From positions 7,912 to 46,912 of the forward strand of contig JBBJNO010000001.1 of NCBI GenBank assembly GCA_037720875.1: DNA of 39,001 nucleotides, read 5' to 3'. Position 1 is the first letter of the stretch. Every line of letters starts with the position of its first letter. Positions 11,271 through 38,877 of this stretch are shown one piece after another. The stretch is from Luteimonas sp. Its GTDB lineage: Bacteria > Pseudomonadota > Gammaproteobacteria > Xanthomonadales > Xanthomonadaceae. Position numbers and translations under genes: made by a program. Under the pieces are notes generated by a model. It did not search any database. It saw only the letters and a list, made by a program, of their open reading frames with translations, and was not told the DNA's origin.

Positions 11271-11384
11271 CCCCTGCTTCTCCGTTCCAGCGCGCGCAGC
11301 ACATATCGACACTGGCAATCCCGATCTCCGTGACAATCCGGCCGGCGGACCGAGGCCATCCGCAGTGATTGTCTCCTCGATGTT

Positions 11385-16710: not shown

Positions 16711-16821
16711 CGGCAAAGCCTTTGCAAACGGCTGGTGACGCAGCTGGTCCGCACGCCCGCGCTTCACCTGTCACCGCACCGGTCTTCCATATGGAAGGTG
16801 TGCAAGGGACGTCCAAGGGCC

Positions 16822-19188: not shown

Positions 19189-19242
19189 CTTCAATCATCT
19201 CGGAAATGTTTGCGGAAAGATTCCGGCCCAGGTCTCTGGGTC

Positions 19243-19317: not shown

Positions 19318-20187
19318 TCAAAGCACGTCGGCAAAGCCCCGTCGCGTTCTCTGGAACCACCAGAAGCCGGCCCATGCGGTCAGCAATCCCGCCGCAAGAT
19401 AGATTGCAAAGACACCCCAGTCCGGATTACGTCCCCAGATGACTGCACCACGCGTCTGCTCGATGGCGATCGTAAGCGGATTGACTTGAATCAGGCCCCT
19501 GTATTTCTCCGGCATCGCCGACAGCGGATAGAACACCGGGGACAGGAATAGCAGCGCCGTCGTAAGAATGCCGGTGATCTGTCCAACGTCGCGCAGGAAC
19601 ACGCCGAGCGAGGCCAGGAACCAGGCAATCCCGAGCGCGAAGGCCGCGATGGGCAGGATCAAGACGGGGGCAAGCAGCACGTGCGGGTGCAGCGCGCCAG
19701 TGGTGGCCAGCACCGCGGCCAGCAACACCAGCATGCTGGTGGCGGCGTGGAACAGTGCTGATCCCAGGGCGATGGCAGGCAGTATCTCAAGCGGGAATAC
19801 CACCTTTTTCACGTAATTCACATTGGCAATGATCAGGCCGGGGGCGCGGTTGACGCACTCGGCGAACAGGGAATGGACGATCATCCCCACGAACAGGACG
19901 ACCGCAAAATCGACATTGCTTTCGTTGCCTGCGGTCTCCCATCGCGCCTTGAAGATCACCCGGAACACGAAGGTATAGATCACCAGCATCAGCAGCGGGT
20001 TCAGGAATGACCACGCCAGCCCCATGACCGACCCTTTATAACGCCCCACCACTTCGCGTCGCGTCATCTGGCCGATCAGGTTGCGATGACGCCACAGGCT
20101 GCGCGCCATCTGCAACGCTGAGGCCGGCATCCTGTAAGTCGCGTCATTCAATATGGTCGACCGCGGATCGTTCCTGCCTCCGGCCAT
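19318..20187 (-). CDS. wzm: O-antigen ABC exporter permease (ABC-2 type) Wzm
   Basis: The sequence is RNLIGQMTRREVVGRYKGSVMGLAWSFLNPLLMLVIYTFVF followed by 6 TM segments, which is typical of Wzm/TagG/KpsM permeases. ATG 20187 shares 1 nt with the metB stop. GTG 20190 is an alternative start. Confidence 0.9.
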   Translation of the reverse strand: MAGGRNDPRSTILNDATYRMPASALQMARSLWRHRNLIGQMTRREVVGRYKGSVMGLAWSFLNPLLMLVIYTFVFRVIFKARWETAGNESNVDFAVVLFVGMIVHSLFAECVNRAPGLIIANVNYVKKVVFPLEILPAIALGSALFHAATSMLVLLAAVLATTGALHPHVLLAPVLILPIAAFALGIAWFLASLGVFLRDVGQITGILTTALLFLSPVFYPLSAMPEKYRGLIQVNPLTIAIEQTRGAVIWGRNPDWGVFAIYLAAGLLTAWAGFWWFQRTRRGFADVL

Positions 20188-21380
20188 CACGCACCGGTCG
20201 TCGTGGGTCGGAGCACGTTGTCGAGTTCTGCCCTCAAGTCGTCGTGTGCTTCCACACCCACGCTCAGCCGCACCAGATTGTCATGGATGCCAAGTGCTGA
20301 GCGCCTCTCTGCCGGCACCGACGCATGGGTCATCACCGCAGGATGGTTGACCAGGCTTTCCACGCCGCCGAGGGACTCGGCGAGGGCAAACAGCTCGGTG
20401 CGCTCGCAGAAGCGTTTCGCCGCTTCGAAGCCACCCTTGAGGTAGATCGAAATAATGCCGCCGAAACCGTCCATCTGCCGTTTGGCGAGCTGGTGCTGGC
20501 GATGCGACTGCAGGCCGGGATACACGACGTTCTCAATGGCAGGGTGCGTTTGCAGGAATTCCGCCAGCGCCTGCGCGTTGTCGCAATGCGCGCGCATGCG
20601 CAGGTGCAGCGTTTTCAGCCCGCGCAGCGCCAGGAAACTGTCGAACGGACCCTGCACGGCCCCGATCGAGTTCTGCAGAAAAGCGAGGGTCTCGGCCAGT
20701 TCGGCGTTGTCGCCGACCACGACCATCCCGCCGACCATGTCCGAGTGGCCATTTAAATACTTGGTGGCCGAGTGCACGACGAGGTCGGCGCCGTGTTCCA
20801 GGGGGCGCTGCAGGATCGGCGAGGCGAAGGTGTTGTCGACCACCATCAACAGGCCACGCGCGCGCACGATTGCGGAGATCGCCCGCAGGTCGACGACCTT
20901 CAGCGTGGGGTTGGTGGGGGTCTCGACCCAGACCATCCTGGTGTTGGGCCGGATCGCCGCTTCGAACGCGGCCGGATCGGTCAGGTCGACGAAACTGAAA
21001 TCCAGCCCGGCGCTGCGCCGGCGCACTCGCTCGAACAACCGGTAGCTGCCGCCGTAAAGATCGTCCATGGCGACGATGTGGTCGCCACTGTCGAGCAGTT
21101 CCAGCACCGTTGCGGTCGCCGCCAGGCCCGACGCGAAGGCAAAACCACGACTGCCGCCTTCCAGCGCCGCCACGCAGCGCTCGTAGGCAAACCGGGTCGG
21201 ATTATGGGTGCGGGAGTATTCGAAGCCCTGATGCACACCCGGGCTCGATTGCACGTAGGTTGAGGTCGCATAGATCGGGGTCATGACCGCGCCGGTGCTG
21301 GGGTCGGGCGACTGGCCGCCGTGGATCGCCAGCGTGCCCAGAGCCAATCCTGCCGGGGCGCCTTGCGGATGTTCCGTCAT
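20187..21380 (-). CDS. metB: PLP-dependent transsulfuration enzyme (cystathionine gamma-synthase/gamma-lyase family)
   Basis: Family motifs are present throughout, including the PLP-lysine motif HSATKYLNGHSD, plus VWVETPTNP and AESLGGVESL. Confidence 0.85.
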   Translation of the reverse strand: MTEHPQGAPAGLALGTLAIHGGQSPDPSTGAVMTPIYATSTYVQSSPGVHQGFEYSRTHNPTRFAYERCVAALEGGSRGFAFASGLAATATVLELLDSGDHIVAMDDLYGGSYRLFERVRRRSAGLDFSFVDLTDPAAFEAAIRPNTRMVWVETPTNPTLKVVDLRAISAIVRARGLLMVVDNTFASPILQRPLEHGADLVVHSATKYLNGHSDMVGGMVVVGDNAELAETLAFLQNSIGAVQGPFDSFLALRGLKTLHLRMRAHCDNAQALAEFLQTHPAIENVVYPGLQSHRQHQLAKRQMDGFGGIISIYLKGGFEAAKRFCERTELFALAESLGGVESLVNHPAVMTHASVPAERRSALGIHDNLVRLSVGVEAHDDLRAELDNVLRPTTTGA

Positions 21381-21657: not shown

Positions 21658-23094
21658 TCAAGCTTCGCAGGAAATGCCGACCTCAATGCGCCCGTAAACG
21701 TCCTCAAGGCGGACGATGTCGTCTTCACCCAAATAGCTACCCGATTGCACCTCGATCAGTTCGACCGGTTCGGTACCGCGGTTGCGCAAGCGGTGCACGC
21801 TCCCCAAGGGAATATAGGTGCTCTCGTTCTCGTGCAGGTCGAACACCCGATCATCGCAAGTGACCTCGGCCACGCCCGACACCACAATCCAGTGCTCGGC
21901 GCGTTGGTGGTGCTTCTGCAGGCTCAGCGCTGCACCGGGCTTGACCACGATGCGCTTGACCTGGAAACGGTCGCCCATGTCGATCGAGTCGTAGTTGCCC
22001 CACGGCCGGTACACCTTGCGGTGGTACAGGTGTTCCTGACGCCCCGCGGCCTTGAGCAGATCGACGATCTGCTTGACGTCCTGCACCCGGTCCTTGCGCG
22101 CGACGAGCGTTGCATCGGGCGTGTCGATGATCACCAGATCCTCCACGCCGATCGTCGCGATCATGCGGCGATCAGACGCCCGCACCAGACTGTTGCGGGT
22201 ATCCACCGACAACACGTCGCCATCGTGGCGGTTACCATCGCCATCCCGTTGGGCCGCCGACCACAGCGAAGACCACGACCCGATGTCGCTCCAGCCGCAC
22301 GCCACCGGCACCACCGCGGCGCGGTCGGTCTTTTCCATCACCGCGTAGTCGATGGAGTCGTCGGGGCAGGCCTCGAACTCAGCCTTGCCGACCCGGATGA
22401 AGTCCAGATCAGACTGGGCCGCCGCAAACGCGGCCCGGGTGGACTGCAGAATGAGGGGTGCATGACGCGCCAGCTCATCCAGGTAACGCTGGGCCTTGAA
22501 CAGGAACATCCCCGAATTCCACGCGTAGGTGCCTGCATCGAGGTACGACTGCGCCGTCGCAAGATCTGGCTTCTCGACGAAACGCGCCACACGGAACCCG
22601 CCATCGCCCAGCGACTCGCCGCGCTCGATGTAGCCGTAGCCGGTCTCGGCGTAATCGGGATCGATGCCGAATGTCACCAGCCAGTCCTGCTCCGCCAGTG
22701 CCATGGCGCGGGCAACCGCCTCCTGGAACGCGGCCTCGTCGTCGATCAAATGATCGGCCGGCAGCACTAGCATGGTCGCCTGGGCATCGGTCTCGACCAG
22801 ATGCAGGGCCGCCAAAGCGATAGCAGGAGCGGTATTGCGCGCCGAGGGCTCGAGCAGGATGGCGCCCTGCGCCAATTCGATCTCGTGCAGTTGCTCGCCA
22901 ACCATGAAGCGGTGCTCTTCGCTACACACCGTCACGGGCGCCTGGGCGCCGGGCAAGCGACTGGTTCGAAGCAAGGTCTCCTGGAACAGGGAACGCTCAC
23001 CGATCAGGGTCAGGAACTGTTTGGGCTGGTTCTGCCGCGAAAGCGGCCACAGCCGGGAACCGCTGCCGCCGCTGAGAATGACCGGGTGAAGCAT
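21658..23094 (-). CDS. manC: Bifunctional mannose-1-phosphate guanylyltransferase / mannose-6-phosphate isomerase (type II PMI-GMP; XanB/WbpW/AlgA family)
   Basis: ORF trimmed to ATG 23094, with GGAG 7 nt upstream. The N-terminus is VILSGGSGSRLWPLSR. The C-terminal cupin is QVKRIVVKPGAALSLQKHHQRAEHWIVVSG. Confidence 0.9.
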   Translation of the reverse strand: MLHPVILSGGSGSRLWPLSRQNQPKQFLTLIGERSLFQETLLRTSRLPGAQAPVTVCSEEHRFMVGEQLHEIELAQGAILLEPSARNTAPAIALAALHLVETDAQATMLVLPADHLIDDEAAFQEAVARAMALAEQDWLVTFGIDPDYAETGYGYIERGESLGDGGFRVARFVEKPDLATAQSYLDAGTYAWNSGMFLFKAQRYLDELARHAPLILQSTRAAFAAAQSDLDFIRVGKAEFEACPDDSIDYAVMEKTDRAAVVPVACGWSDIGSWSSLWSAAQRDGDGNRHDGDVLSVDTRNSLVRASDRRMIATIGVEDLVIIDTPDATLVARKDRVQDVKQIVDLLKAAGRQEHLYHRKVYRPWGNYDSIDMGDRFQVKRIVVKPGAALSLQKHHQRAEHWIVVSGVAEVTCDDRVFDLHENESTYIPLGSVHRLRNRGTEPVELIEVQSGSYLGEDDIVRLEDVYGRIEVGISCEA

Positions 23095-23520
23095 TACAAC
23101 TCCATAGTTCTGCAAGGAAAGCCCGTTATTTTATCCGATGCCATGTCCAAGCGAATGCGCGCCGCTTTGCTCAGCTAGAATAGGCGCCCCAGCCCGCGCC
23201 CTCCTCGATCCTCTCGTGCCTAACGACTTCAAGTCGACTAGACCGGCAAGATCATTGCCCCAGAGCTATACGTTTTTTTGTCATCAGCGGCGCGATCCAC
23301 GGGTATCAAGGATGCCGGCACCATTTTCGCGATAAACAGGGACGGCGCGCCAGTTTTCGAGATCGCACATATCGGGCTGGTGGGAGACCTGTTCATACTA
23401 ACTCCCTCCCTGCAGAAGCGATCCCCTAGACAGCTGGTGTGTTGAGCCAGTTTCTTTTTTCGGTCCACAAACGATCCGCACTATTCATTCGTCAATACAA
23501 CAATTTAGGAGTCTCCCTTC
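23095..23520. promoter_or_regulatory. 426-bp AT-richer divergent intergenic region (promoters for manC and for the plus-strand amino-sugar operon)
   Basis: It lies between divergent starts at 23094 (-) and 23521 (+). I could not assign a confident -35/-10 or ops/JUMPstart motif. Confidence 0.4.
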
Positions 23521-24108
23521 GTGAAAACAACTCAACTGCTTAGCGTCACCATTGCCCTTGCCTTACTCTCCACTGCCGGCTGCAATAAACCGAGCAGCGA
23601 ATTGTCCAGCGAACAGCCCAAAGCCGTCCCTGTTGCAGTTCAGCCTGTCGGAATGGACAAGCCACTCGCAGCAGAAAATATCGACCTTTCCTACAAAATA
23701 CTCACCGGCCCGGCTTATAACTCCGCCACCGATACCGTCACTTATCAGATCGAAACAGTCAACAACGGCAAGGCCACGCTCGTTAGCGCTGGCTCGCTGC
23801 CAGTCCATCTCGGCGTTGTCATCAGGGGGACGGATGGAACGATGAACGCGCCGCCAGCCAATCTGGAGTTCATGCGTATCCCGTTTCCTCAACCGCTGGA
23901 GTCTGGTCAGAGCGTTACACTGCCGGTGGAGTTCAAAGTATCGTCCACGATCGGGGGAACGGTTGTCTTGGACGCAGTTCAGGAACAGGTGGGTTGGTTC
24001 AGCGGCTACAAGAAGCCGGTGCTTACGCTCGGTACGTTCCAGCGATGCAATGCCGCCGAGAACACCCTTTGCCTTGCGGATGGCACAGCAGTTCCGGCAG
24101 TTCAATGA
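23521..24108 (+). CDS. Predicted lipoprotein of unknown function
   Basis: The start is a GTG with AGGAG 9 nt upstream. It has a signal peptide plus lipobox (MKTTQLLSVTIALALLSTAG|C), and the +2 residue is Asn. The mature part is beta-rich. A long antisense ORF (23563..24315) is judged to be a shadow frame. Confidence 0.65.
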   Translation: MKTTQLLSVTIALALLSTAGCNKPSSELSSEQPKAVPVAVQPVGMDKPLAAENIDLSYKILTGPAYNSATDTVTYQIETVNNGKATLVSAGSLPVHLGVVIRGTDGTMNAPPANLEFMRIPFPQPLESGQSVTLPVEFKVSSTIGGTVVLDAVQEQVGWFSGYKKPVLTLGTFQRCNAAENTLCLADGTAVPAVQ

Positions 24109-24272
24109 GTGCTGCGACCAGCGCTTAAACGCAATTTTTTGTGCTTCAAGGGCTTTACGATGGCCGATTGCTATCGGCCTTTTCGGGACGGTCATCTTGC
24201 CAGCTACACCTCCGCCGCGCGTCGATCCATCGCGAGCAATCTCCAACGTCGACCGTGAGCCGGTGCAATCCC

Positions 24273-24971
24273 ATGACCAAACGAATTGCCATCGTCCAAT
24301 CATCCTATCTTCCATGGAAGGGGTTTTTCGATCTGATCCGGTCGGTCGACGAATTCGTGCTGTACGACGACATGCAATTCACCCGCAGAGACTGGCGCAG
24401 CCGCAACCGAATCAAGACCGCTAATGGGTTGCATTGGTTGACCGTGCCCGTAGACGTAAAGGGAAAGTTCGATCAGAAGATCAAGGAGACCCATGTGGCC
24501 AGCAGGGATTGGGCGGCCAGCCATTGGCAAACCCTTCGTCACGCCTACGCCAAGGCGCCATATTTCAGCCAATACCGCCCGGAGGTCGAAGCGGCATTCG
24601 TCGAGCTCGGTGACGAACCAATGCTCAGCAGGATCAATTTCCGCCTGATCACGATGCTGTGCGAGCTCCTTGGAATCTCCACGCCGATCACCTGGTCGAT
24701 GGACTACCCGCAGCAGGAGGGCAAGTCCGAGAGGCTCTTGTCCATATGTCAGGCCGCGGGCGCAAGTCACTACCTGTCTGGGCCCGCCGCGAAGGATTAC
24801 ATGGACGTCGACCTGTTCGAGCGCAACGGCGTGGGTGTCTCGTTCGCGGATTATTCCGGGTACCCCGAGTATCCCCAATCGCATGGGCCATTCGAGCATG
24901 CTGTGAGCGTGCTCGACCTACTTTTTAATACGGGCCCCAATGCTCTGAATTTCATGAAGCAACAACACTAG
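24273..24971 (+). CDS. WbqC-family protein
   Basis: ORF trimmed to ATG 24273. The N-terminal signature IAIVQSSYLPWKGFFDLI...YDDMQFTRRDWRSRNRIKT..G..WLTVPV is characteristic of WbqC-like proteins from O-antigen clusters. Confidence 0.8.
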   Translation: MTKRIAIVQSSYLPWKGFFDLIRSVDEFVLYDDMQFTRRDWRSRNRIKTANGLHWLTVPVDVKGKFDQKIKETHVASRDWAASHWQTLRHAYAKAPYFSQYRPEVEAAFVELGDEPMLSRINFRLITMLCELLGISTPITWSMDYPQQEGKSERLLSICQAAGASHYLSGPAAKDYMDVDLFERNGVGVSFADYSGYPEYPQSHGPFEHAVSVLDLLFNTGPNALNFMKQQH

Positions 24972-24972
24972 T

Positions 24973-25899
24973 ATGCTGTCTATCGTCACTACCCTGTATC
25001 ACTCGGCCGCGTACGTGACCGAATTTATCGCACGCATCGAGCGAACAGCCGAAACTCTGACCACGGATTATGAAATAATTCTGGTAAACGACGGCTCTCC
25101 GGACGATTCAGCCGCGCTCGCGCGACGGCTGGCAGAGAAGAACAGCCACCTCATACTGGTGGACCTATCCCGCAACTTTGGCCATCACAAGGCAATGATG
25201 GCGGGTTTGATGCACGCGCGCGGCAACCGGATTTTCCTAATCGACGTGGATCTGGAAGAGCCGCCCGAGTTGCTGGCCGAGTTCTGGCAGCGCATGAATG
25301 ACAGCCCCGACACGGACGTCGTGTATGGGCAGCTCCGCCAACGCAAAGGCGGATTTTTCGAGCGGGTTTCTGGCGAACTCTACTATTCGGCAATCAACCG
25401 GCTGGGGGGGGTTCATATTCCGCGTAACATCTCGACCGTTCGCCTGATGACAAAGCGGTACGTGCGCAGCCTGCTGGAATATCGCGAGCGCGAGATGTTC
25501 ATGGCGGGCCTGTGGTCGGCTACCGGGTATCGCCAGGAAGCAGTCACAATTACCAAGGCGAACAAGGGTAATAGCACCTATAACTTGGCGCGCAAACTTT
25601 CCCTGCTGACAAATTCCATCGTCGTTTTCAGCAACAAACCGTTGCTCTTCATCTTCCACACGGGCTTGCTGATTTCCCTCTGCAGCGCCACCTATGTCGG
25701 ATACCTTCTCTACAACCACCTGTTCCTGAGTTCGCCGCCCAGCGGCTGGACGTCACTCATGGCATCCATCTGGCTCATTGGTGGCATGATCATCCTGTTT
25801 CTAGGACTGATCGGTATCTATCTCTCAAAGATATTCATCGAAGTGAAACAGAGGCCGTATGTGACGATCCGGGAAGTCGTCGGAGGCAATCAGTCGTGA
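24973..25899 (+). CDS. GT2 polyprenyl-phosphate glycosyltransferase (ArnC/GtrB-like)
   Basis: The motifs are IILVNDGSPDDS, LSRNFGHHKAMMAGL and IDVDLEEPPE, plus two C-terminal TM helices and the terminal IGIYLSKIFIEVKQRPYVTI. This is the typical ArnC/GtrB architecture. Confidence 0.9.
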   Translation: MLSIVTTLYHSAAYVTEFIARIERTAETLTTDYEIILVNDGSPDDSAALARRLAEKNSHLILVDLSRNFGHHKAMMAGLMHARGNRIFLIDVDLEEPPELLAEFWQRMNDSPDTDVVYGQLRQRKGGFFERVSGELYYSAINRLGGVHIPRNISTVRLMTKRYVRSLLEYREREMFMAGLWSATGYRQEAVTITKANKGNSTYNLARKLSLLTNSIVVFSNKPLLFIFHTGLLISLCSATYVGYLLYNHLFLSSPPSGWTSLMASIWLIGGMIILFLGLIGIYLSKIFIEVKQRPYVTIREVVGGNQS

Positions 25900-26531
25900 C
25901 CAACGCTCCTAGCGACAAGTTTGTCAGCACGATCGACGAGTACTATTCCGACAAGATCCGTACCTATGGCGCGACGCCACAGGGAGTTGACTGGAACGGC
26001 GAAGCGAGTCAGAGACTGCGTTACGAGCAGATCGCTCGGGTACTGCCCGCCTCCACCTTCAGTGTCTGCGACCTTGGCTGCGGCTATGGCGCATTTTATG
26101 ACTACCTAGTAGAAGAGCGTGCCGATTTCCGCTATCTGGGCGTGGACGTGTCTGCCGAAATGGTTCGCGAGGCCGAACGCCTCCACCAGAAGGACAATTG
26201 CCGCTTCATCCGTGCGGACCGGCCGGATTCAAATGTCGACTTCGTGGTAGCCAGCGGCATCTTCAATGTCCGCCCGGGCATCAGCGATGCCGAGTGGCGG
26301 CCGTTCGTGTTCGAGGGCATCGATCGCATGAATGCCATGAGCACGCGCGGATTCGCTTTCAATTGCCTGACGTCGCACTCGGATTCTGAGCGGATGCGCG
26401 ACTACCTTTTCTACGCCGACCCGTCCGAGATGCTGGTGCGCTGCCTAGGCCTCAGCCGACGCGTCGCCCTCCTGCACGACTATGGCCTGTACGAGTTCAC
26501 CGTCATCGTGCACAAGGAAACCAAGGTATGA
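25896..26531 (+). CDS. Class I SAM-dependent methyltransferase
   Basis: The GTG start overlaps the GT2 stop (GTGA), with GGAGG 9 nt upstream. Motif I is VCDLGCGYGAF. Confidence 0.8.
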   Translation: MTNAPSDKFVSTIDEYYSDKIRTYGATPQGVDWNGEASQRLRYEQIARVLPASTFSVCDLGCGYGAFYDYLVEERADFRYLGVDVSAEMVREAERLHQKDNCRFIRADRPDSNVDFVVASGIFNVRPGISDAEWRPFVFEGIDRMNAMSTRGFAFNCLTSHSDSERMRDYLFYADPSEMLVRCLGLSRRVALLHDYGLYEFTVIVHKETKV

Positions 26532-27172
26532 CCAAGCCACTGATAATTTTCGGGTCAGGCGACATTGCCCAGCTGGCGCATTTCTACTTCACGCATGACA
26601 GCGATCGCAAAGTGATCGCATTCACGGTCGACGAAGCCTATCGAAACGCGGAGGAGTTCGACGGCTTGCCGCTAGTGGCGTTCGAGGACGTGGAAAGCCG
26701 CTTTCCGTCTGACCAGTTCGACATGTTCGTTGCGCTCAGCTACGCCAAGCGTAATTCGATCCGGGCAGAGAAATGCCTGTCTGCGCAAGGCAAGGGCTAC
26801 AACCTGGCCAGTTATATCAGCTCGCGTGCGACGGTATTCCCCGGAACTCGTTTTGGGGACAACTGTTTTATCCTCGAGGACAACACCATCCAGCCGTTCG
26901 TACAGATCGGCAGCAACGTGACGCTGTGGAGCGGAAACCACATCGGCCACCACAGCATTGTGGACGACAACACGTTCATCACCTCGCACGTCGTGATCTC
27001 CGGCGGCGTCCACGTAGGCAAGAATTGCTTCATCGGGGTCAACACCACTGTGCGGGATCACGTCACCATCGGTGACCGCTGCCTGATCGGTGCGGGCTCG
27101 CTGATCCTGCATTCCACCGAACCGGCCTCGGTCTACGTGGCAGCCGACACCCCTATTTCCGTCAAGCCCTGA
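26528..27172 (+). CDS. Sugar N-/O-acetyltransferase, NeuD/PglD-type (Rossmann-like N-domain plus left-handed beta-helix)
   Basis: It overlaps the upstream gene with ATGA. The N-terminus is LIIFGSGDIAQLA. It has C-terminal hexapeptide repeats (IGSNVTLWSGNHIGHHSIVDDNTFITSHVVISGGVHVGKNCFIGVNTTV). Confidence 0.85.
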   Translation: MTKPLIIFGSGDIAQLAHFYFTHDSDRKVIAFTVDEAYRNAEEFDGLPLVAFEDVESRFPSDQFDMFVALSYAKRNSIRAEKCLSAQGKGYNLASYISSRATVFPGTRFGDNCFILEDNTIQPFVQIGSNVTLWSGNHIGHHSIVDDNTFITSHVVISGGVHVGKNCFIGVNTTVRDHVTIGDRCLIGAGSLILHSTEPASVYVAADTPISVKP

Positions 27173-27181
27173 TCCCACCGC

Positions 27182-28138
27182 ATGGCGCTCATGCACTGGA
27201 AAAAGCTCGGGCACCTGTTCGCTCCAGACGGGAGCATCCATTGGATGCGCACGCATGCCGCGAACCCATTCGGGATCTGGATCGGCCCGGGTTTGCTGAA
27301 GGTCTTTTTCACCTCGCGCGATGAGCATCAGCGCTCGCATATCGCCAGCGTCATCGTGAACGTGGCCAAGGATTTTGAGCTGGGCAAGCCGGACAGCGAG
27401 CCGGTGCTGGCACCGGGACCACCGGGCGCATTCGACGACAGCGGCTGTGCCGTGGGTTGCGTGTTGCCGGTCGGCGACAGCGTGCGCCTTTACTATCTCG
27501 GATGGAATCTCAAGGTCACTGTTCCTTGGCTCAACAGCATCGGCTTGGCGATCCAGGGGATGGGCGGCGGTGCGTTCGAGCGCTATTCTCCGGCCCCGCT
27601 GATGGACCGCAGTCGTGAAGACCCTTTCAGCATTTCCTATCCAAGCGTCCTGCACGAAAATGGTCGATGGCGCATGTGGTATGGCTCCAACCTCCAGTGG
27701 GGTGAGCGAGCGGAGGACATGCAACATGTGATCAAGTACGCAGAGTCGCGGGACGGTCTGGAGTGGTCGCGCAGCGGGACAATTGCGGTGAACTTGGTCC
27801 ACCGGAACGAGTTTGCACTCTCGAAACCGTTCGTCGTCCGCGATTTGGATCGCTACCGCATGTGGTACTCGTATCGTGGTCGCGGCGACATCAGCAGCTA
27901 TCGCATCGGCTATGCGGAATCGATGGACGGCGTGGCGTGGACGCGGATGGACGCGAACGCCGGCATTGACGTCTCGGAGCACGGCTGGGACAGCGAAATG
28001 GTTTGCTACCCGTTTGTGTTCGACCATGCCGGCAGACGCTACATGCTCTACAACGGGAATGGATACGGCAGGACCGGATTCGGGGTCGCCGTGCTCGAGG
28101 AGTCGAACCCAAGCATGACCAACAAAGTGAGAACATAA
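27182..28138 (+). CDS. Five-bladed beta-propeller (GH43/32/68-clan-like) protein of unknown role
   Basis: It has repeated blade-like W/Y-rich segments (RLYYLGWN, GRWRMWYGSN, YRMWYSYRG, RYMLYNGNG) and DG..W motifs (RDGLEWSR, MDGVAWTR). The fold assignment comes from pattern recall and is not verified. Confidence 0.5.
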   Translation: MALMHWKKLGHLFAPDGSIHWMRTHAANPFGIWIGPGLLKVFFTSRDEHQRSHIASVIVNVAKDFELGKPDSEPVLAPGPPGAFDDSGCAVGCVLPVGDSVRLYYLGWNLKVTVPWLNSIGLAIQGMGGGAFERYSPAPLMDRSREDPFSISYPSVLHENGRWRMWYGSNLQWGERAEDMQHVIKYAESRDGLEWSRSGTIAVNLVHRNEFALSKPFVVRDLDRYRMWYSYRGRGDISSYRIGYAESMDGVAWTRMDANAGIDVSEHGWDSEMVCYPFVFDHAGRRYMLYNGNGYGRTGFGVAVLEESNPSMTNKVRT

Positions 28139-28139
28139 G

Positions 28140-28514
28140 ATGCGTAGCTGGGTAGCCTACTGCTTGGTGGCATCGACCGTCCTACTGACGGTAAGCGGCC
28201 AGTTCATCGTGAAATGGCAAGTGCTCCGCGCGGGAAGCGTTCCTACCGGATTGCAGCAGCAATTGAGGTTTATTGTCCAACTCCTTCTAGACCCTTGGGT
28301 GCTGTCCGCGTTCGCCGCCGCCTTCCTGGCGTCCATCACGTGGATGCTTGCCATGACCAAGCTCCAGCTCAGCCATGCCTATCCAATGACTGCGCTGACT
28401 TTCGTTCTGGTCGTACTGGGCAGTGCATTCGTCTTTCACGAGCAGCTCACCCCACTCAAGCTCGTGGGACTTGCCCTTATCGTGGCGGGTATCGTTGTCG
28501 GGAGCCAAGGATGA
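28140..28514 (+). CDS. SMR/EamA-like four-helix membrane protein (ArnE/ArnF-like undecaprenyl-phosphate-aminosugar flippase subunit candidate)
   Basis: It is 124 aa with 4 TM helices. The segment LQLSHAYPMTALTFVLVVLGSAFVFHEQLTPLKLVGLALIVAGIVV matches the ArnE/ArnF pattern. The ATG lies 1 nt after the upstream stop. Confidence 0.7.
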   Translation: MRSWVAYCLVASTVLLTVSGQFIVKWQVLRAGSVPTGLQQQLRFIVQLLLDPWVLSAFAAAFLASITWMLAMTKLQLSHAYPMTALTFVLVVLGSAFVFHEQLTPLKLVGLALIVAGIVVGSQG

Positions 28515-29386
28515 GACTGTGCCTCCAGTGCGCGCAGCCCTATGTCAGCAACGCCCCAACCTGCACTCATTGCAACCATTCCGAGAAGGTGGTTGATGGC
28601 GTACCCCGTTATGCACCTGAGATGGCGCTGAGCGGCGTTGGCTTCCGGCCCGAGTACTTCGATGAGCTCGCTGAGCTCGAGGCCAGGAATTTCTGGTTCC
28701 GCGGCCGCAATAACCTCGTCATCGACACGATCCGCCGGTTCTTTCCGGCGCCGCGCAACTTCCTCGAAGTCGGCTGTGGTACCGGCTTCGTACTATCGGG
28801 TATCGCCCGTGCATTCCCGCGCACGCAGTTGAGCGGAAGTGAGTTGTTTTTGGAAGGCCTGGTGCATGCGGCCCAGCGTCTACCCGAGGCGCACCTGATG
28901 CAGATGGACGCGCGCCGGATTCCCTATACCGCCGAGTTCGACCTGGTTGGCGCATTCGATGTCATCGAGCACATCGAGGACGACGATATCGTGCTGTTGG
29001 CCATCAACGAGGCATTGGTGCCAGGAGGTGGCGTCGTACTCACCGTTCCGCAGCACCCGTGGTTGTGGAGCCATTCGGACGACTATGCGTGCCACGTCCG
29101 CCGATATAGACGCGGCGAGCTCGAGGAAAAGCTGGCGCGCGCCGACTTCAACGTGGTGTACAGCACGTCGTTTGTCACCCTGCTCTTTCCGCTTCTGGCG
29201 CTGTCCCGTCTGTCTTCCCGCCAAGCCGCCGGTCCCAATCACGATCCCAGCGCCGAGCTGAAGCTCGGGAGGATCACCAATGCCATCCTGTACGCGGTAG
29301 TGCAGGTGGAGCGGCAGTTGATTCGGCTTGGAGTCCGTTTCCCGTTCGGCGGTACCCGCCTCGTTTTCGCAGTGAAGAATCCATGA
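28511..29386 (+). CDS. Class I SAM-dependent methyltransferase with an N-terminal Cys4 zinc-ribbon
   Basis: ORF 28214..29386 trimmed to ATG 28511 (ATGA overlap). It has CLQC...CTHC at residues 4-24. Motif I is FLEVGCGTGFV, followed by FDVIEHIEDD. Confidence 0.8.
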   Translation: MRLCLQCAQPYVSNAPTCTHCNHSEKVVDGVPRYAPEMALSGVGFRPEYFDELAELEARNFWFRGRNNLVIDTIRRFFPAPRNFLEVGCGTGFVLSGIARAFPRTQLSGSELFLEGLVHAAQRLPEAHLMQMDARRIPYTAEFDLVGAFDVIEHIEDDDIVLLAINEALVPGGGVVLTVPQHPWLWSHSDDYACHVRRYRRGELEEKLARADFNVVYSTSFVTLLFPLLALSRLSSRQAAGPNHDPSAELKLGRITNAILYAVVQVERQLIRLGVRFPFGGTRLVFAVKNP

Positions 29387-30513
29387 GAATCCCCTTTAAC
29401 AAGCCCTACATGACCGGCCAGGAACTGGCTTATATCGCCCAGGCCCATTCCAACGCACATCTGTCCGGCGACGGCCCCTTCACCAAGGACTGCAATGCCT
29501 GGCTTGAGAACGCCACGGGCTGCCGCAAGGCGCTGCTAACCCACTCGTGCACGGCGGCCCTCGAGATGTCGGCGATACTGCTGGACCTCCAGCCTGGCGA
29601 CGAAGTCATCATGCCTTCGTTTACGTTCGTTTCTACAGCGAACGCCTTCGTTCTGCGCGGCGCGGTTCCAGTCTTTGTCGACATCCGTCCCGACACGCTA
29701 AACATCGATGAGCGACTCATTGAGGCAGCGATCACCTTGCGCACGCGCGCCATCTGCGTCGTTCATTACGCGGGCGTTTCGTGCGAGATGGATGCTATCT
29801 GCGCGATTGCTCGCAAGCACGGCCTTGCCGTCGTCGAGGACGCGGCGCAGGGAATGTTTTCCACTTACACAGGCCGTCCGCTGGGAAGCTTCGGCGAGTT
29901 GGGCGCGCTGAGCTTCCACGAAACCAAGAACGTCATCTCCGGCGAGGGCGGCGCCCTTCTCATTAACCACCCAGGGATGCTCGAGCGTGCCGAGATCATC
30001 CGCGAGAAAGGAACCAACCGCAGCAAGTTTTTGCGTGGTCAGGTCGACAAATACACCTGGGTGGACATCGGTTCGTCGTTTCTGCCCGGCGAAATCATCG
30101 CCGCATTCCTGAAAGCCCAGCTCGAGCAGGCTCAGGTGATCACGGAGCGGCGGATGGCGATCTGGGACCGCTACCACGATTGGGCCAAAGTGCACGAGGA
30201 CGCCGGGCGGGCGCGGCGCCCCATCATTCCCGCACACTGCCAGCACAACGCGCACATGTACTACCTCCTGATGCCGGACCTTGCGGCTCGGACGAGGTTC
30301 ATCAACGCGCTCAAGGTCCGGGGAATCGGGGCGGTGTTCCACTACATCCCCCTGCATAGCGCTCCGGCAGGCCAGCGCTACGGACGCACGTCCGGCCAGC
30401 TCCCGGTCACCGATGCGACAAGCGAACACTTGGTGCGGCTGCCGCTTTGGGCCGGCATGGAGGTCCACCTGGACGAAGTGCTTGAGGCCGCCGACACTGC
30501 GTTGAGTGCCTGA
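29383..30513 (+). CDS. wecE: DegT/DnrJ/EryC1-family PLP aminotransferase, closest to dTDP-4-amino-4,6-dideoxygalactose transaminase (WecE/RffA)
   Basis: It overlaps the upstream gene with ATGA. It has long colinear matches to E. coli WecE as I recall it: IPFNKP, CTAALEMSAILLDLQPGDEVIMPSFTFVSTANAFVLRGAVPVFVDIRPDTLNIDE, VVEDAAQG, SFHETKN, ERAEIIREKGTNRSKFLRGQVDKYTWVDIGSS and VFHYIPLHSAPAG. Confidence 0.85.
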   Translation: MRIPFNKPYMTGQELAYIAQAHSNAHLSGDGPFTKDCNAWLENATGCRKALLTHSCTAALEMSAILLDLQPGDEVIMPSFTFVSTANAFVLRGAVPVFVDIRPDTLNIDERLIEAAITLRTRAICVVHYAGVSCEMDAICAIARKHGLAVVEDAAQGMFSTYTGRPLGSFGELGALSFHETKNVISGEGGALLINHPGMLERAEIIREKGTNRSKFLRGQVDKYTWVDIGSSFLPGEIIAAFLKAQLEQAQVITERRMAIWDRYHDWAKVHEDAGRARRPIIPAHCQHNAHMYYLLMPDLAARTRFINALKVRGIGAVFHYIPLHSAPAGQRYGRTSGQLPVTDATSEHLVRLPLWAGMEVHLDEVLEAADTALSA

Positions 30514-30531
30514 CGGCCCGCGGACGAGTTC

Positions 30532-30906
30532 CAGGTCGGATAACGGTGCAGTGCTGGTCGTTCCGGGCTCGTACCAGCATTCAGATGCCCCGATGACGAA
30601 TACATGCAGGCTTCGGCGATACCGGCCGAGTGCCCGGCAGGTTCACTGGTCGTTTTCGATAGCACACTGTGGCATGCCGCCGGCGCGAACTTTTCTGGAC
30701 TGGGCCGCTACGCGATCAATCTCCAGTTCACCTGCTCTTGGATTAATTAAGCAGCAAATCAACTATATGCGGCAATTGACGCTAGTGCACTAGATTATTC
30801 CCTGAGCGTTCTCGTCAGTTACTTGGCATGCACGCGGCTTGTCACCAGTTTGGATGAGTATTATCGACCGCCGCAGGAAGGACTATACCGCTCTGGCCGA
30901 GGCTAA
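30532..30906 (+). pseudogene. 5'-truncated, frameshifted relic of a phytanoyl-CoA dioxygenase (PhyH) family gene
   Basis: PhyH-like peptides are scattered over different frames. I found [13 protein letters not shown] (frame of ORF 30506), [53 protein letters not shown] then TAA (30748-30750), IKQQINY, SRQLLGM and SLDEYY. The N-terminal half of the protein is absent, because the wecE-like gene ends at 30513. Confidence 0.6.
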
Positions 30907-30951
30907 AGCACTGTAAATGCCGCTACACTCAAAGAATCCAGCACAGCACCT

Positions 30952-33261
30952 TCATCGCCCACGATGATCTTCGGTCCCTTGCCTCAGCGGTAAGGCCGGG
31001 CCACCCTGCGGCCTTGTGCGACGAGTTACGGAAATATCTGAGATTGAGAAGGCCAACATACGCGGATCACCAGTGCCGGGTGAGCATGCTGATTCAGTGG
31101 TGGTAATCGGAAGTGTCGACGTTCCAGACGAAAGGACCGTATCCAACGTCACCGTCGTCGACTGTCCGGCCTGAAGCACGGCATTCTTGCTGGATGTTCC
31201 GGCCCCCACGGTCACGCGCCGCGGACATAACGTCGCCACCTTCATTGAAATGCGGACCGGCGCGGATATTCCGTCCCGGCTGGTCAAGCTGAGTGAGGCG
31301 TTGCCCTTGCTCCAGCTCCATTTGTGTGCTGTATCAGCGCCCTCCCAACCAAAAAACCCCTCACCCAGCTCTATCCCGTATTCACCAAGGCGTGGAATGT
31401 CCGGGTAGTAGCTAAACACCAAGTTGTCCACGTCGATCTTCCAATCGGCCCGTACAGTGACCGATGGAAAATCGTCGTCCTGCTGGCTCATGTCGATCGC
31501 GGCGGCGAAAAAACTGTCGGCAGCATTGGCAATCGGGACGCCCTCCACCAATACATTTGGTTCGATAGACTCGCCGTCGGACAACGTGCCAACCAAATTC
31601 ACCTTGCGGTTTCTTCCGTAGCTATACACCACGACAACATTGCTTCTTACGCCCGAGCCGTTCGAGATGTCCACCTGATCTTTGATGGGCGCGTAGATAA
31701 GGAACTGGTTGTCGGTGTGTGGCTCCTGTAGATACTTCATGTAAACGACGCTTCCAGTCGGTGCCGCGCGAGCTTGAGCGGCGTCGGACGTCACCAATAC
31801 CTTCTTGCCGGATCTTCTACTGAAGTACTCCGACCAATAGGCAGGGTGAATCGCCACTATGCCCCTCGCGCTGAAAAGACTAGGGGCCAGAATCGTCGAA
31901 TTATTGGGAAGCGCTCGGAATTCCTTGGTAAGCAGAAAATTGTCCACTACTTTCCACTTTATGTTGGACAGGCGCTCGTCCTGAGTGACGTAGTAGTTGT
32001 TGAAGTCAGTAACCAAACTGATCGCAGCGGTCAGTGCCGCCACTACAAATATCAGCACCCTCTTGGCCCCTATCCGTGCCTGCAGGTGTCCGAGCAGCCA
32101 AGTAATAAACAGCGCAAGAAAGAAAATAATCGCGATGTACGAGTAGTAGGTGTGGACGAAGGATGTGCTGCCGCCTTCCACCCAGCCGCGGTATTTTTCG
32201 GTGAGCGAAAGCAAGACATTGGGCAGGAATACGCAAACAAGCGAAATTACTAATCCCCATCGCAGGAATGTCGGCCGCGGCCGTAGCGCCAGTTGGCAAA
32301 GGATGAGCCCAACGGCATACGCCGTAATCGCGGATTTGACGATCCACTCCACCCGGAGCTCAGATGCCAAAGTACTTAGGTCATACTGCGAGAGCCCATA
32401 GCTTGTCATCAGGTTCCCATGCTGACGAGCCACCAAGGCCTCGAATCCCGGGAATGCGGACATCGAGTACGTCCAGACAACGTTGATCATTCTGGACAGC
32501 CCGCTCGCACTTGGAATATTCCCTTCGTATTGCGAGGGGAACGCCAGTCGCCAGGCCACATAGAGGAAGAGGTACGCGAACAGCGCCGCGGCAACCGGCA
32601 GGACTTTCTTCGCGGCAGTTGCCAGCCCCCGAAAGCGTCCACCAGCAACGCCATTTCGCGCACGCTCATGGACGGCAGCAATGACGACGAATACGGGGAA
32701 AAACAGAACGAAGTGCTCACCGGATAGGGAGAGGAAATAGAGAGCGGCGGCCAAAAGGCCGTAAAGGCCGCCTTTCTCCAAGTACTTGATGAAACTAGCG
32801 ACCGAACCTAGAAATGCAATCGCGAGCATGTTGATCAATAATGGATACGATGTCAGAGCGTTGTGATTCCAATTATTCTGTACAAACGCCAAAAAGAGGA
32901 CTACTGCCAGCGCCCCCAAGGGCGTTGACCTGTAAATACCACGCAAGAATACAAACACCATCAGCAATAGCAGGGCAGGCCCTGCGAACCTGATGGCGTT
33001 GTAATAAATAGGATTGTCAAACAGATACGGGGCAACCAGCAGTGGCGTACCGAAGAAGAACCCGATTCGTCCTTGCTCTTTCGCATAATGCAGTGGACTG
33101 ATCGTGTGCCAGTCCGACGCGATGGCGAGGTCATCGTTCGTCGTGAAGCCTGTAGACAAAAGCGGAAAATACGTTAACAGGAACATCAGCCCAATCATCA
33201 GCAGGATGATTTTATTTTGTGCGGCGGATTCGTTTTGGATGGGAAGTACTGGTGTTTCCAT
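30952..33261 (-). CDS. GT-C-fold membrane glycosyltransferase (ArnT/PMT-like) with a large C-terminal periplasmic domain
   Basis: ORF trimmed to ATG 33261, with AGGA 8 nt upstream. There are roughly 12 hydrophobic segments. The first-loop motif is STGFTTNDDLAIASDW (a DD motif). A C-terminal stretch of about 330 aa is soluble. The gene has markedly low GC. Confidence 0.7.
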   Translation of the reverse strand: METPVLPIQNESAAQNKIILLMIGLMFLLTYFPLLSTGFTTNDDLAIASDWHTISPLHYAKEQGRIGFFFGTPLLVAPYLFDNPIYYNAIRFAGPALLLLMVFVFLRGIYRSTPLGALAVVLFLAFVQNNWNHNALTSYPLLINMLAIAFLGSVASFIKYLEKGGLYGLLAAALYFLSLSGEHFVLFFPVFVVIAAVHERARNGVAGGRFRGLATAAKKVLPVAAALFAYLFLYVAWRLAFPSQYEGNIPSASGLSRMINVVWTYSMSAFPGFEALVARQHGNLMTSYGLSQYDLSTLASELRVEWIVKSAITAYAVGLILCQLALRPRPTFLRWGLVISLVCVFLPNVLLSLTEKYRGWVEGGSTSFVHTYYSYIAIIFFLALFITWLLGHLQARIGAKRVLIFVVAALTAAISLVTDFNNYYVTQDERLSNIKWKVVDNFLLTKEFRALPNNSTILAPSLFSARGIVAIHPAYWSEYFSRRSGKKVLVTSDAAQARAAPTGSVVYMKYLQEPHTDNQFLIYAPIKDQVDISNGSGVRSNVVVVYSYGRNRKVNLVGTLSDGESIEPNVLVEGVPIANAADSFFAAAIDMSQQDDDFPSVTVRADWKIDVDNLVFSYYPDIPRLGEYGIELGEGFFGWEGADTAHKWSWSKGNASLSLTSRDGISAPVRISMKVATLCPRRVTVGAGTSSKNAVLQAGQSTTVTLDTVLSSGTSTLPITTTESACSPGTGDPRMLAFSISDISVTRRTRPQGGPALPLRQGTEDHRGR

Positions 33262-33399
33262 ATATGTCCTAGATGCGTACAAAGCCGTCAGTTCTCAGGC
33301 ATCGCTGCAGTCGCCTCGAAAGATTACCGAGCTTGGCGGATCTCCCTTTCGAACGACGCTGGGCGAGCTCGCCATGCTGGTTACGTCGTCCACCCGGCG

Positions 33400-34329
33400 T
33401 TACACCAGTTGTTCTGCCGGATAACTCCGATACAGCCAATCCGGACGTTTAGGATGCGGCTCGCGCTCTTTACGCCAACGCGTGAACAAATATTGTCCCA
33501 AGTCATATTCTCGATTCGGTGTGGCCGCAATAATGCTTCGTACAACGTCAGCAGTCATTTTCTCCATTGGCCGATCGGGCCCAACGTTGGCGGTATAGCT
33601 GATCTCGGCGACAAACCCGCAATGATCCATCAACAAGTGAAGTTCGTGACGAGTGTATTCCCGGTTATGGCGTCCGTATGGACCGTATCCAGAGTAAGGA
33701 TCGTAAATGTTGCGACCTTCACAGAAAGCAATCACATTCTCAAGACGAGTTGCATTGGGCGTCGTCAATATAATATGTCCACCCATCTTCGTGACTCTGG
33801 ATAGCTCTTTCAGCGGAGCCAGAGGGTCATTCGTCATGTGTTCAAGTACTTCACAGAACAGGACAAGGTCGAATCTCTCGTCAGCGAAGGGTACGCTATC
33901 GGTTTCCACATTTACGTGCGGAGACTCAAGCACTACGCTCTGACGAACACCATCGAACCCATCGAACTCCACGCGTTGCCTCACCAAATCGCCAAGTCCT
34001 GAACCAAAATAATTAATCATAGACAAAGTGTATTCTGGTCGGAACTGCTTGATCAGCATTGTGGTGAAGTAGGGATTAGAGCCGATCTCGAGCAGTTCAC
34101 CCGCCCCTGCCGGGATAAGATCAAGCGTTCGGATGAACCTCTCGCAGTCAGCATATGCATAGTTGCGCAGCTCGCCAGCCGGGCTATTGTCAATGCTCTG
34201 CGAAACCATCGCCTCACGAATTGCGTAGAGACTGAGATTACCTGGCAGCTCAAGAGGAGGCTGATAGTCGCGCGGATCAACCGCTGGCGAGTCAAGTCTT
34301 TTTTCGAGAGATTCGTGCTCGATCGCCAT
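33400..34329 (-). CDS. Class I SAM-dependent methyltransferase
   Basis: The motifs are ELLEIGSNPYF and FDLVLFCEVLEHMTNDPLAPLKELSRVTKMGGHIILTTPN. I chose ATG 34329 because AGGAG lies 8 nt upstream. Alternative starts are at 34347 and 34356. Confidence 0.8.
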   Translation of the reverse strand: MAIEHESLEKRLDSPAVDPRDYQPPLELPGNLSLYAIREAMVSQSIDNSPAGELRNYAYADCERFIRTLDLIPAGAGELLEIGSNPYFTTMLIKQFRPEYTLSMINYFGSGLGDLVRQRVEFDGFDGVRQSVVLESPHVNVETDSVPFADERFDLVLFCEVLEHMTNDPLAPLKELSRVTKMGGHIILTTPNATRLENVIAFCEGRNIYDPYSGYGPYGRHNREYTRHELHLLMDHCGFVAEISYTANVGPDRPMEKMTADVVRSIIAATPNREYDLGQYLFTRWRKEREPHPKRPDWLYRSYPAEQLV

Positions 34330-34481
34330 TTCATATTCTCCTGACATCACAGCCACTTGTGCAAAGTAAAATTACGGCGTGCGGCCAATTGGTGCACCAA
34401 AAGTTTCGCCAAGGTTGTATTAACTAACCACGCAAGAATCTCTAAATCTTGATTGAGTGCCCTGACACATGGAAAGGGAAG

Positions 34482-36995: not shown

Positions 36996-38877
<1,882 letters not shown>

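Follow-up and report, generated by a model that had tools for sequence, protein, structure and literature searches.

The stretch analysed here, called the window below, comprises 39,001 nt of a Luteimonas sp. contig (JBBJNO010000001.1, positions 7,912 to 46,912) and constitutes an O-antigen locus of D-rhamnan type with an ABC transporter (Wzm/Wzt), from a Xanthomonadales-like bacterium. Within it lie eight consecutive plus-strand open reading frames (ORFs; 24273-30513) that contain no internal stops, as taken from the ORF list and from direct reading of the junctions. The first encodes a WbqC-family protein (24273-24971; 232 aa) and is the conserved opening gene of a cassette described below. 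It is followed by a GtrB/ArnC-type polyprenyl-phosphate glycosyltransferase of family 2 (GT2; 24973-25899; 308 aa) with a GT-A domain and two C-terminal transmembrane (TM) helices, by the cassette member MT1, a class I S-adenosylmethionine (SAM) methyltransferase (25896-26531; 211 aa), and by a left-handed beta-helix (LbH) sugar N-acetyltransferase of the NeuD/PglB/VioB family (26528-27172; 214 aa). The second half encodes a predicted cytoplasmic beta-propeller distantly related to GH130 (27182-28138; 318 aa), a putative flippase of the 4-TM DMT/EamA type resembling ArnE and ArnF (28140-28514; 124 aa), a second class I SAM methyltransferase with an N-terminal Cys4 ribbon, MT2 (28511-29386; 291 aa), and a WecE-type dTDP-4-keto-6-deoxy-D-glucose 4-aminotransferase (29383-30513; 376 aa). 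Convergent to this run, on the minus strand, is the gene of a 769-aa polytopic membrane protein (30952-33261), a putative periplasmic transferase with a GT-C-like N-terminal part and C-terminal beta-sandwich domains resembling carbohydrate-binding modules (CBMs).

Adjacent genes of the run are separated by 1 nt (24971/24973 and 28138/28140) or 9 nt (27172/27182), or overlap by 4 nt (GTGA at 25896-25899; ATGA at 26528-26531, 28511-28514 and 29383-29386), exactly as the first-pass annotation of this DNA had described for eight same-strand genes. Its eight domain labels (WbqC, ArnC-like GT2, two methyltransferases, NeuD-type acetyltransferase, beta-propeller, ArnE/F-like protein and WecE-like aminotransferase) were upheld by Pfam, NCBIfam and PDB sequence searches. 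The GC content of third codon positions is 0.70-0.79 for all eight genes, as expected of real genes. The start choices at 24273 (not the GTG at 24141) and at 28511 (not 28214) match homologue lengths and public gene calls: WbqC homologues are 232 aa long and begin at the same methionine, and both the 291-aa methyltransferase and the 769-aa membrane protein have the same lengths in the public calls of an identical contig. Cognatiluteimonas profundi (L003) has all eight genes in identical order, and a plasmid of Azospirillum brasilense (L092) has them rearranged; they therefore constitute a conserved operon rather than a chance run of ORFs. A promoter and terminator scan of 23000-34500 returned sites fewer than, or no more than, those in shuffled sequence and was thus uninformative.

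Predicted enzymes of donor synthesis and tailoring

The aminotransferase scored 598.8 bits against the NCBIfam model NF008687 (cut-off 375) and 600 bits against TIGR02379 (cut-off 434.85), which places it among the WecE equivalogs, and it has a full-length DegT/pyridoxal phosphate fold; it fell below the cut-offs of the ArnB, PseC and LegC models. Among PDB entries it matched E. coli WecE (4piw) at 3.1e-137 over residues 3-359 and perosamine synthetase at 2e-45, and its Azospirillum orthologue is annotated rffA. Given this equivalog status, the product would likely have the galacto configuration (4-amino-4,6-dideoxygalactose, Fuc4N), but the name of the subfamily model covers the gluco product too. 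The acetyltransferase exceeded the cut-off of TIGR03570 (168.9 versus 160.8 bits, residues 5-205), which makes it a member of the NeuD/PglB/VioB family, characterised by a Rossmann-like domain at the N-terminus followed by the LbH domain, and its relatives in the PDB are PglD, PerB and VioB. Domain annotation of the window ORFs confirmed the earlier statement that rmlB is not encoded there, and the same holds for rmlA. In other genomes rmlA/rmlB and gmd are rarely found within 10 kb of the cassette, so local linkage does not discriminate the donor nucleotide.

The WbqC protein matches PF08889 at 2.5e-80, over profile positions 1-217 of 218 and far above the gathering score (269.9 versus 21.3 bits). 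It is ~60% identical across phyla, and the family has only one invariant histidine. An AlphaFold2 model of high confidence (pLDDT 92.3) found no match better than E=0.2 in a fold search of the PDB, and sequence and profile searches of PDB chains returned nothing. In the BFVD viral structure library, five unnamed proteins have the WbqC fold (e.g. A0A6J4EHY4, E 2e-15, TM 0.80), so phages or giant viruses would appear to carry a protein of this fold as well. A faint HUP/nucleotidyltransferase likeness was seen in both the PDB and the viral library, but the matches to cytidylyltransferases, aminoacyl-tRNA synthetases and ATP-sulfurylases (HUP class) were too weak for a function to be assigned from them. 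A possible tie, in the Pfam description, between WbqC and the N-acetylglycyl substituent on the sugar of E. coli O121 / S. dysenteriae 7 is treated here as a lead only. The family has been described as uncharacterised (PMC5532660, PMC5507510), and no work on function turned up in literature searches that combined WbqC, PF08889 and GH130 with O-antigen.

For the propeller, the label could be refined to that of a distant GH130 relative. Profile searches placed the GH130 beta-1,2-oligomannan phosphorylase 9fj8 (1.5e-9) and 7fip among its nearest solved relatives, and NCBIfam gave beta-1,2-mannobiose phosphorylase at 2.3e-8, far under the cut-off; with 15.5 bits against a Pfam cut-off of 26 (PF04041), the protein lies outside GH130 proper. 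The profile alignment covers part of the propeller in a shifted blade register, which does not allow catalytic residues to be placed. No TM segment or signal peptide was predicted. More than 7,500 homologues are detectable; many in Bacteroidota are 55-60% identical, and identities of 50-60% are found in Bacteroidota, Nitrospinota, Planctomycetota and others. GH130 beta-1,2-mannoside phosphorylases were recently shown to have glycosyltransferase activity as well, and together with GT108 they demonstrate that this fold is capable of cytoplasmic sugar transfer, with sugar-1-phosphates or nucleotide sugars as donors (PMC12814180). In contrast to those enzymes, the propeller shows partial similarity, with an E-value of ~1e-9 reached only by profile and the Pfam cut-off unmet. 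By analogy, a cytoplasmic transfer reaction would be plausible for it, and no more.

MT1 matched Methyltransf_12, Methyltransf_25 and Methyltransf_11 in Pfam, and in the PDB its profile picked up nothing but generic class I methyltransferases, aligned over the SAM motif, with BamL at the top (1e-7). MT2 matched Methyltransf_23 (1.3e-15) and carries an N-terminal CxxC...CxxC; its gene travels with those of the flippase and the aminotransferase, and in the minimal module of locus L086 it lies between GtrA and the aminotransferase. Searches of Pfam, NCBIfam and the PDB assigned neither protein to a specific methyltransferase family. Downstream of the aminotransferase gene, tblastn detected what is left of a decayed gene for a PhyH-type Fe(II)/2-oxoglutarate dioxygenase, namely a 3′ part (30556-30822, plus strand). 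It is 33-42% identical to residues ~144-250 of this ~270-aa family, has an in-frame stop at ~30748 and lacks the N-terminal half. Two close relatives (L085 and L089) have an intact PhyH gene at the same position, after the aminotransferase, and its decay here indicates that the version of the pathway in the window has lost one tailoring step.

A cassette conserved across phyla

A scan seeded with the propeller, using one genome per species, returned 148 loci, of which the best 80 were analysed. Genes were counted from 7 kb before to 8 kb after the propeller gene, and the counts are lower bounds since many contigs end nearby. The LbH acetyltransferase was found in 74 of the 80 loci, the WecE-like aminotransferase in 70, WbqC in 69 and a GtrB-type GT2, inside or beside the cassette, in 66; MT1 (58/80), a PhyH-type dioxygenase (42/80), MT2 (36/80) and the ArnE/F-like protein (19/80) followed. 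Two C-terminal hydrophobic helices were present in 57 of 69 cassette-associated GT2s. WbqC, a methyltransferase, the LbH acetyltransferase, the propeller and the WecE-like aminotransferase form a cassette that occurs in at least 80 species from more than ten phyla. Its hosts include Bacteroidota, Alpha-, Beta- and Gammaproteobacteria, Nitrospinota, Thermodesulfovibrionia and Planctomycetota, as well as Cyanobacteria and their non-photosynthetic relatives, Acidobacteriota, Ignavibacteria, Bdellovibrionota, Chloroflexota and candidate phyla. The first-pass annotation could not match the combination with WbqC, a propeller and two methyltransferases to a characterised pathway; the combination of WbqC, methyltransferase, acetyltransferase, propeller and aminotransferase is conserved across many phyla and is not idiosyncratic.

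The cassette is also found on plasmids. That of A. brasilense carries WbqC, GT2, methyltransferase, acetyltransferase and propeller genes, with EamA, methyltransferase, rffA, GT4 and 517-aa methyltransferase genes nearby, and a Peteryoungia plasmid carries the cassette as well. A variant on a Rhizobium leguminosarum plasmid (L091; NZ_CP030763.1, 624784-630739) encodes the aminotransferase, WbqC, the propeller, a second propeller-like protein, a GNAT acetyltransferase, a methyltransferase and a glycosyltransferase; here the propeller is duplicated and the acetyltransferase family has been swapped. This replacement of the LbH enzyme by one of the GNAT family speaks for N-acetylation as a necessary step, and for the aminotransferase, WbqC and the propeller as the constant core.

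Proposed delivery to the polysaccharide and competing explanations

The GT2 contains the Pfam domain Glycos_transf_2 (2e-25) and matches Synechocystis GtrB (5ekp) over its full length at 1.6e-48 (residues 2-302 against 28-329), and ArnC (9hwj) at 5e-32. Its sequence IDVDLEEPPE aligns with the DXD motif of GtrB (IDADLQDPPE), and its hydrophobic helices lie at 216-234 and 262-280. It scored below the cut-offs of all NCBIfam equivalogs, including PgfS and ArnC, and by full-length alignment belongs to the polyprenyl-phosphate sugar synthases (GtrB/ArnC type) of Gtr-type systems. The 124-aa protein has four hydrophobic helices and exceeds the Pfam EamA cut-off (31.1 versus 28.2 bits); ArnE (43.6 bits, cut-off 92) and ArnF (43.5 bits, cut-off 99) are its best named matches, and it is a candidate small multi-TM flippase encoded with the synthase. 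The description of the module as 'Arn-like' in the first pass stands as a mechanistic analogy and falls as an assignment to the Arn pathway. The latter was rejected on the scores for ArnB (NF008658, 199.7 versus 631) and ArnC (NF007986, 130.9 versus 529), with ArnE and ArnF failing too, and Pfam and NCBIfam searches found no ArnA, ArnD or ArnT domain in the operon ORFs or in the large ORFs of the window.

The convergent 769-aa protein belongs to no Pfam family, and sequence and profile searches of PDB chains gave no match. At least nine hydrophobic helices lie within its first ~430 residues, followed by a soluble part of ~330 residues. The AlphaFold2 model, built from 17 homologues (pLDDT 83.5), matched PglB (5ogl; E 1.9e-4, prob 1.00, 562 columns) and EmbA/B (7bvc; 7.9e-4) in Foldseek, and its C-terminal beta-sandwiches resemble those of CBM-bearing proteins and Cry domains. 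GT-C enzymes have 7-13 TM helices and carry a catalytic acid in an extracytoplasmic loop after TM1, and at this place the family has the motif 'GFTTNDD' with a nearly invariant aspartate. Pfam scans of 17 and 25 family members detected only a C-terminal DUF7024, in a few of them. An exhaustive HMM search collected 2,709 clusters at 50% identity; the notion that the family is rare was therefore rejected, the 17 matches of a word-indexed search being an artefact of sensitivity, and the protein belongs to a large GT-C-like family, for the membrane part of which Pfam offers no model.

Homologues in four other contigs always adjoin GtrB-like GT2 genes, GtrA or ArnE/F genes and genes of multi-domain GT4 polymerases. 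In L086 a GT2, a Hexapep acetyltransferase, GtrA, MT2 and a DegT aminotransferase precede the homologue, which is followed by multi-domain GT4 proteins; in L087, GtrA and a GT2 precede it and GT4 proteins follow. In L088 it lies beside GtrA, two GT2 genes, a DegT gene and a nucleotidyltransferase gene, and in L089 a homologue with 66% identity is convergent between a double GT4 gene and the same cassette, as in the window. The earlier call of a convergent GT-C is thus supported both by the predicted structure and by the linkage of the family to GtrB-like GT2 and flippase genes elsewhere, the gene neighbourhood being the stronger evidence of the two. Other cassette loci have a YfhO, a PMT_2-like protein or a member of a further family as the neighbouring large membrane protein, and in the closest named relative this convergent position is occupied by another, different large membrane protein. 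Such exchange is expected if an acceptor-specific third component is swapped.

We propose, with a probability of roughly 0.6, that the operon is the donor-making and delivery part of a Gtr/Wxc-type three-component system, which would decorate the ABC-exported D-rhamnan-type O-polysaccharide in the periplasm with a modified 4-acetamido-4,6-dideoxyhexose. According to this model, dTDP-4-keto-6-deoxy-D-glucose would be supplied by rmlA/rmlB located elsewhere in the genome. The WecE-type aminotransferase would convert it to a dTDP-4-amino sugar, most likely Fuc4N, and the LbH acetyltransferase would N-acetylate this product, both steps being predicted from family membership. MT1, MT2, WbqC and the propeller would then tailor the sugar in the cytoplasm, where methylation and further acyl or glycosyl transfer are our guess, and the hydroxylation step of relatives would be missing here with the decay of PhyH. 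The GT2, judged by its full-length homology to GtrB and ArnC, would load the sugar onto undecaprenyl phosphate (Und-P), and the ArnE/F-like 4-TM protein would flip the lipid-linked sugar. Finally, the fold and the conserved gene neighbourhood suggest that the GT-C-like protein would transfer the sugar to the undecaprenyl diphosphate (Und-PP)-linked polysaccharide after Wzm/Wzt export and before ligation, while its CBM-like C-terminal domain would hold the backbone. Because such addition would be periplasmic, the added sugar cannot be a chain-end signal for the cytoplasmic C-terminal domain of Wzt, and it is more likely a side branch.

Several points weigh against this proposal. The functions given to the operon proteins are predictions from genes and modelled structures, and the substrate roles given to WbqC, the propeller, MT1 and MT2 are guesses. 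The flippase candidate lies under both the ArnE and the ArnF cut-off. The 769-aa protein has no sequence-profile link to any known GT-C family, and the global TM-scores of its model matches are only 0.24-0.29, which is support at the level of the fold. The true partner of the operon could instead be one of two other large membrane proteins of the window (846 or 636 aa; see below). Lastly, in two loci of the Wzx/Wzy type (L016, with Wzx, GT61 and GT4, and L083) no GtrB-type GT2 accompanies the five-gene cassette. From this it follows that the five soluble enzymes probably act in the cytoplasm on a nucleotide sugar, and the cassette sugar can also be used by ordinary cytoplasmic glycosyltransferases.

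Those two loci lend themselves to a different explanation, in which the cassette only supplies a modified nucleotide sugar to cytoplasmic Leloir glycosyltransferases for an O-unit, adaptor or cap, while the GT2, flippase and GT-C handle an ordinary sugar such as Glc or GlcNAc. The donor of a GtrB-family enzyme is not assignable from its sequence, and the GT2 of the operon is under every NCBIfam equivalog cut-off, which would suit this explanation. However, the GT2 gene is embedded between WbqC and MT1, with a 1-nt gap on one side and a 4-nt overlap on the other, a GtrB-type GT2 accompanies the cassette in 66 of the 80 loci, and the minimal module of L086 unites the GT2, acetyltransferase, GtrA, MT2, aminotransferase and membrane protein. 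We consider this division of labour unlikely, if the most credible of the alternatives. The perosamine route is less probable still: the aminotransferase would act on GDP-4-keto-6-deoxy-D-mannose from the Gmd of the window, giving N-acetyl-perosamine (Rha4NAc) rather than dTDP-derived Fuc4NAc or its gluco counterpart Qui4NAc. The window does contain gmd and manC and not rmlA and rmlB, and the acetyltransferase family includes the perosamine N-acetyltransferase PerB. Against it stand the scores of ~600 bits, in excess of the cut-off, with each of the two WecE models, the gap in PDB matches between E. coli WecE (3e-137) and perosamine synthetases (2e-45), and the rffA annotation of the Azospirillum orthologue; moreover, neither gmd nor rmlB usually lies within 10 kb of the cassette elsewhere, and linkage says little.

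An Arn-like charge modification has also to be weighed. Here, the N-acetyl group would be a transient protecting group, which WbqC or the propeller would take off once the sugar is on the lipid carrier, and a free, possibly N-methylated, cationic sugar would be flipped by the ArnE/F-like protein for transfer to lipid A or core, conferring resistance to cationic peptides. Acylation followed by deacylation is the established logic of the Arn, Francisella GalN and Bordetella GlcN pathways and serves as a precedent; ArnE and ArnF are the best named matches of the small membrane protein, two invariant cassette proteins are left without an assigned step, and N-methyltransferases head the PDB matches of the MT1 profile, although the similarity covers just the SAM motif. 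Yet Pfam and NCBIfam detected no CE4, YdjC or ArnD-type deacylase signature in any of the proteins, WbqC has just one invariant histidine, and the 769-aa protein lacks an ArnT/PMT_2 signature. Its homologues always adjoin O-polysaccharide GT4 polymerases, its CBM-like domains suit a polysaccharide acceptor, and the module as a whole lies inside an O-antigen locus. We consider such a modification of lipid A or core improbable.

A broader proposal is made more tentatively, at somewhat less than even odds: that the cassette, often joined by PhyH and a GtrB-type GT2, constitutes an undescribed pathway to a tailored 4-amino-4,6-dideoxyhexose. Two of its steps would then depend on kinds of enzyme not met before in sugar biosynthesis, namely a protein of the WbqC fold and a cytoplasmic GH130-fold transferase acting on a nucleotide- or lipid-linked sugar.

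Related systems and the surrounding O-antigen locus

Nearest to the operon stand the Gtr-type three-component modification of O-antigens and the wxcK-O side-branch module of Xanthomonas. Three-component systems (GtrA/GtrB/Gtr* of Shigella and Salmonella, galactose addition in Klebsiella, pentofuranose addition in Citrobacter youngae) consist of the parts proposed here, a polyprenyl-phosphate sugar synthase, a small or multi-TM flippase and an acceptor-specific GT-C; they act after polymerization and also work on O-polysaccharides made by ABC transporters, as in Klebsiella. In the C. youngae system the GT136 GT-C, ORF12, carries a backbone-binding CBM (PMC11127046), and the 769-aa model, GT-C-like with a C-terminal CBM-like domain, resembles this arrangement. 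The present system would differ in its donor, a tailored amino-dideoxyhexose instead of Glc, Gal or a pentofuranose, and does differ in having donor biosynthesis genes in the same operon as the delivery genes, an ArnE/F-like putative flippase instead of GtrA or a MATE protein, and a GT-C-like protein of a family without a Pfam model. Those systems also lack counterparts of WbqC, the propeller and the two methyltransferases.

Mutation of wxcK or wxcN in X. campestris strips the rhamnan O-antigen of its FucNAc side branches, and loss of these branches gives longer rhamnan (PMC4878081). The wxc region 3 (wxcK-wxcO) in X. campestris pv. campestris belongs to the same bacterial order and shares wzm/wzt, gmd/rmd and a rhamnan main chain with the window. 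There, too, an aminotransferase and an acetyltransferase make a dTDP-acetamido-dideoxyhexose, a small membrane protein is needed for branching, and mutants lose only the branch. The Wxc sugar is a 3-acetamido sugar made through an FdtA/FdtB-type isomerase and 3-aminotransferase, and its small membrane protein is of the GtrA type. The present operon, in contrast, encodes a WecE-type 4-aminotransferase and no isomerase, with WbqC, the propeller and two methyltransferases in addition.

The Arn pathway (ArnBCADTEF, making Und-P-L-Ara4N) shares the logic of amino transfer, N-acylation, loading by a GT2, a small flippase and GT-C transfer, with full-length homology between the GT2 and ArnC and resemblance of the small protein to ArnE/F. 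The substrate here would be a dTDP 6-deoxyhexose rather than UDP-Ara4O, and the probable acceptor O-polysaccharide rather than lipid A. Synthesis of dTDP-Fuc4NAc and dTDP-Qui4NAc is described for WecE/WecD of the enterobacterial common antigen and for VioA/VioB of Shigella dysenteriae 7 and E. coli O7 (cited in PMC7685785). The WecE-equivalog aminotransferase and the VioB-family LbH N-acetyltransferase correspond to these enzymes, which act on dTDP-4-amino-4,6-dideoxyhexose; those systems use cytoplasmic glycosyltransferases on Und-PP-linked units, whereas the operon has a GtrB-type enzyme and putative tailoring enzymes.

What appears new is thus the predicted donor sugar, the presence of its pathway in the delivery operon, the widespread pair of WbqC and propeller, and a GT-C-like family without a model. 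Side branches of O-antigens set serotype, receptors for phages and tailocins, and chain length, and the module would be a compact example of aminosugar delivery via a lipid-monophosphate carrier onto a polysaccharide made by an ABC transporter. WbqC and the propeller have thousands of homologues each, 50-60% identical between phyla, and nearly always lie together with a sugar 4-aminotransferase and an N-acetyltransferase; their reactions, once assigned, would annotate many surface-glycan loci and could reveal new nucleotide-sugar chemistry.

The surroundings of the operon are those of an ABC-transporter-type O-antigen locus. The ABC-transporter component wzm lies at 19318-20190 and wzt, with a Wzt_C domain, at 15283-16767. 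Two minus-strand genes (11385-13736 and 16822-19194) encode proteins of ~785 aa with the same GT4+RgpF (rhamnan synthesis) architecture, and they flank wzt and the gene of a 517-aa Methyltransf_24 protein; the class I methyltransferase that adjoins GT4 genes near the cassette on the A. brasilense plasmid is of equal length (517 aa). A double-GT4 WbdA-like protein is encoded at 34482-36962 and gmd at 36996-37970. ManC, Gmd and an Rmd-like reductase are all encoded in the window and together make up a GDP-D-rhamnose route. Between wzm and manC lies a cystathionine gamma-synthase/lyase-type (metB-like) gene (20187-21380, minus strand), metB being the usual border marker of the lipopolysaccharide (LPS) locus in xanthomonads. 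The best named relative is a Lysobacteraceae genome, and in close metagenomic relatives etfAB adjoin the cassette; the locus is of the Xanthomonadales style of LPS locus.

The 846-aa and 636-aa proteins mentioned above (5885-8425 and 9426-11336, both on the minus strand) are large polytopic membrane proteins with at least 9-10 hydrophobic helices. Neither belongs to a Pfam family, and pairwise comparison of the 846-, 636- and 769-aa proteins found no relationship among them. Each of the two could serve the locus as a further GT-C-like modifier or as a polymerase. Their genes have as neighbours an FAD amine-oxidase-like gene (3507-4814) and a gene for a methyltransferase (5206-5871). Immediately upstream of the operon, within the 1.1-kb gap after manC, a 195-aa ORF (23521-24108, plus strand) encodes a lipoprotein-type signal peptide (LSTAGC lipobox) and matches no Pfam family. 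Between the GT-C-like and double-GT4 genes sits a gene for a 318-aa methyltransferase (33400-34356, minus strand), around which the GC content drops to 0.51 (region 33000-34400). This drop and the lack of the gene in the otherwise syntenic L089 suggest that it is a recent insertion.

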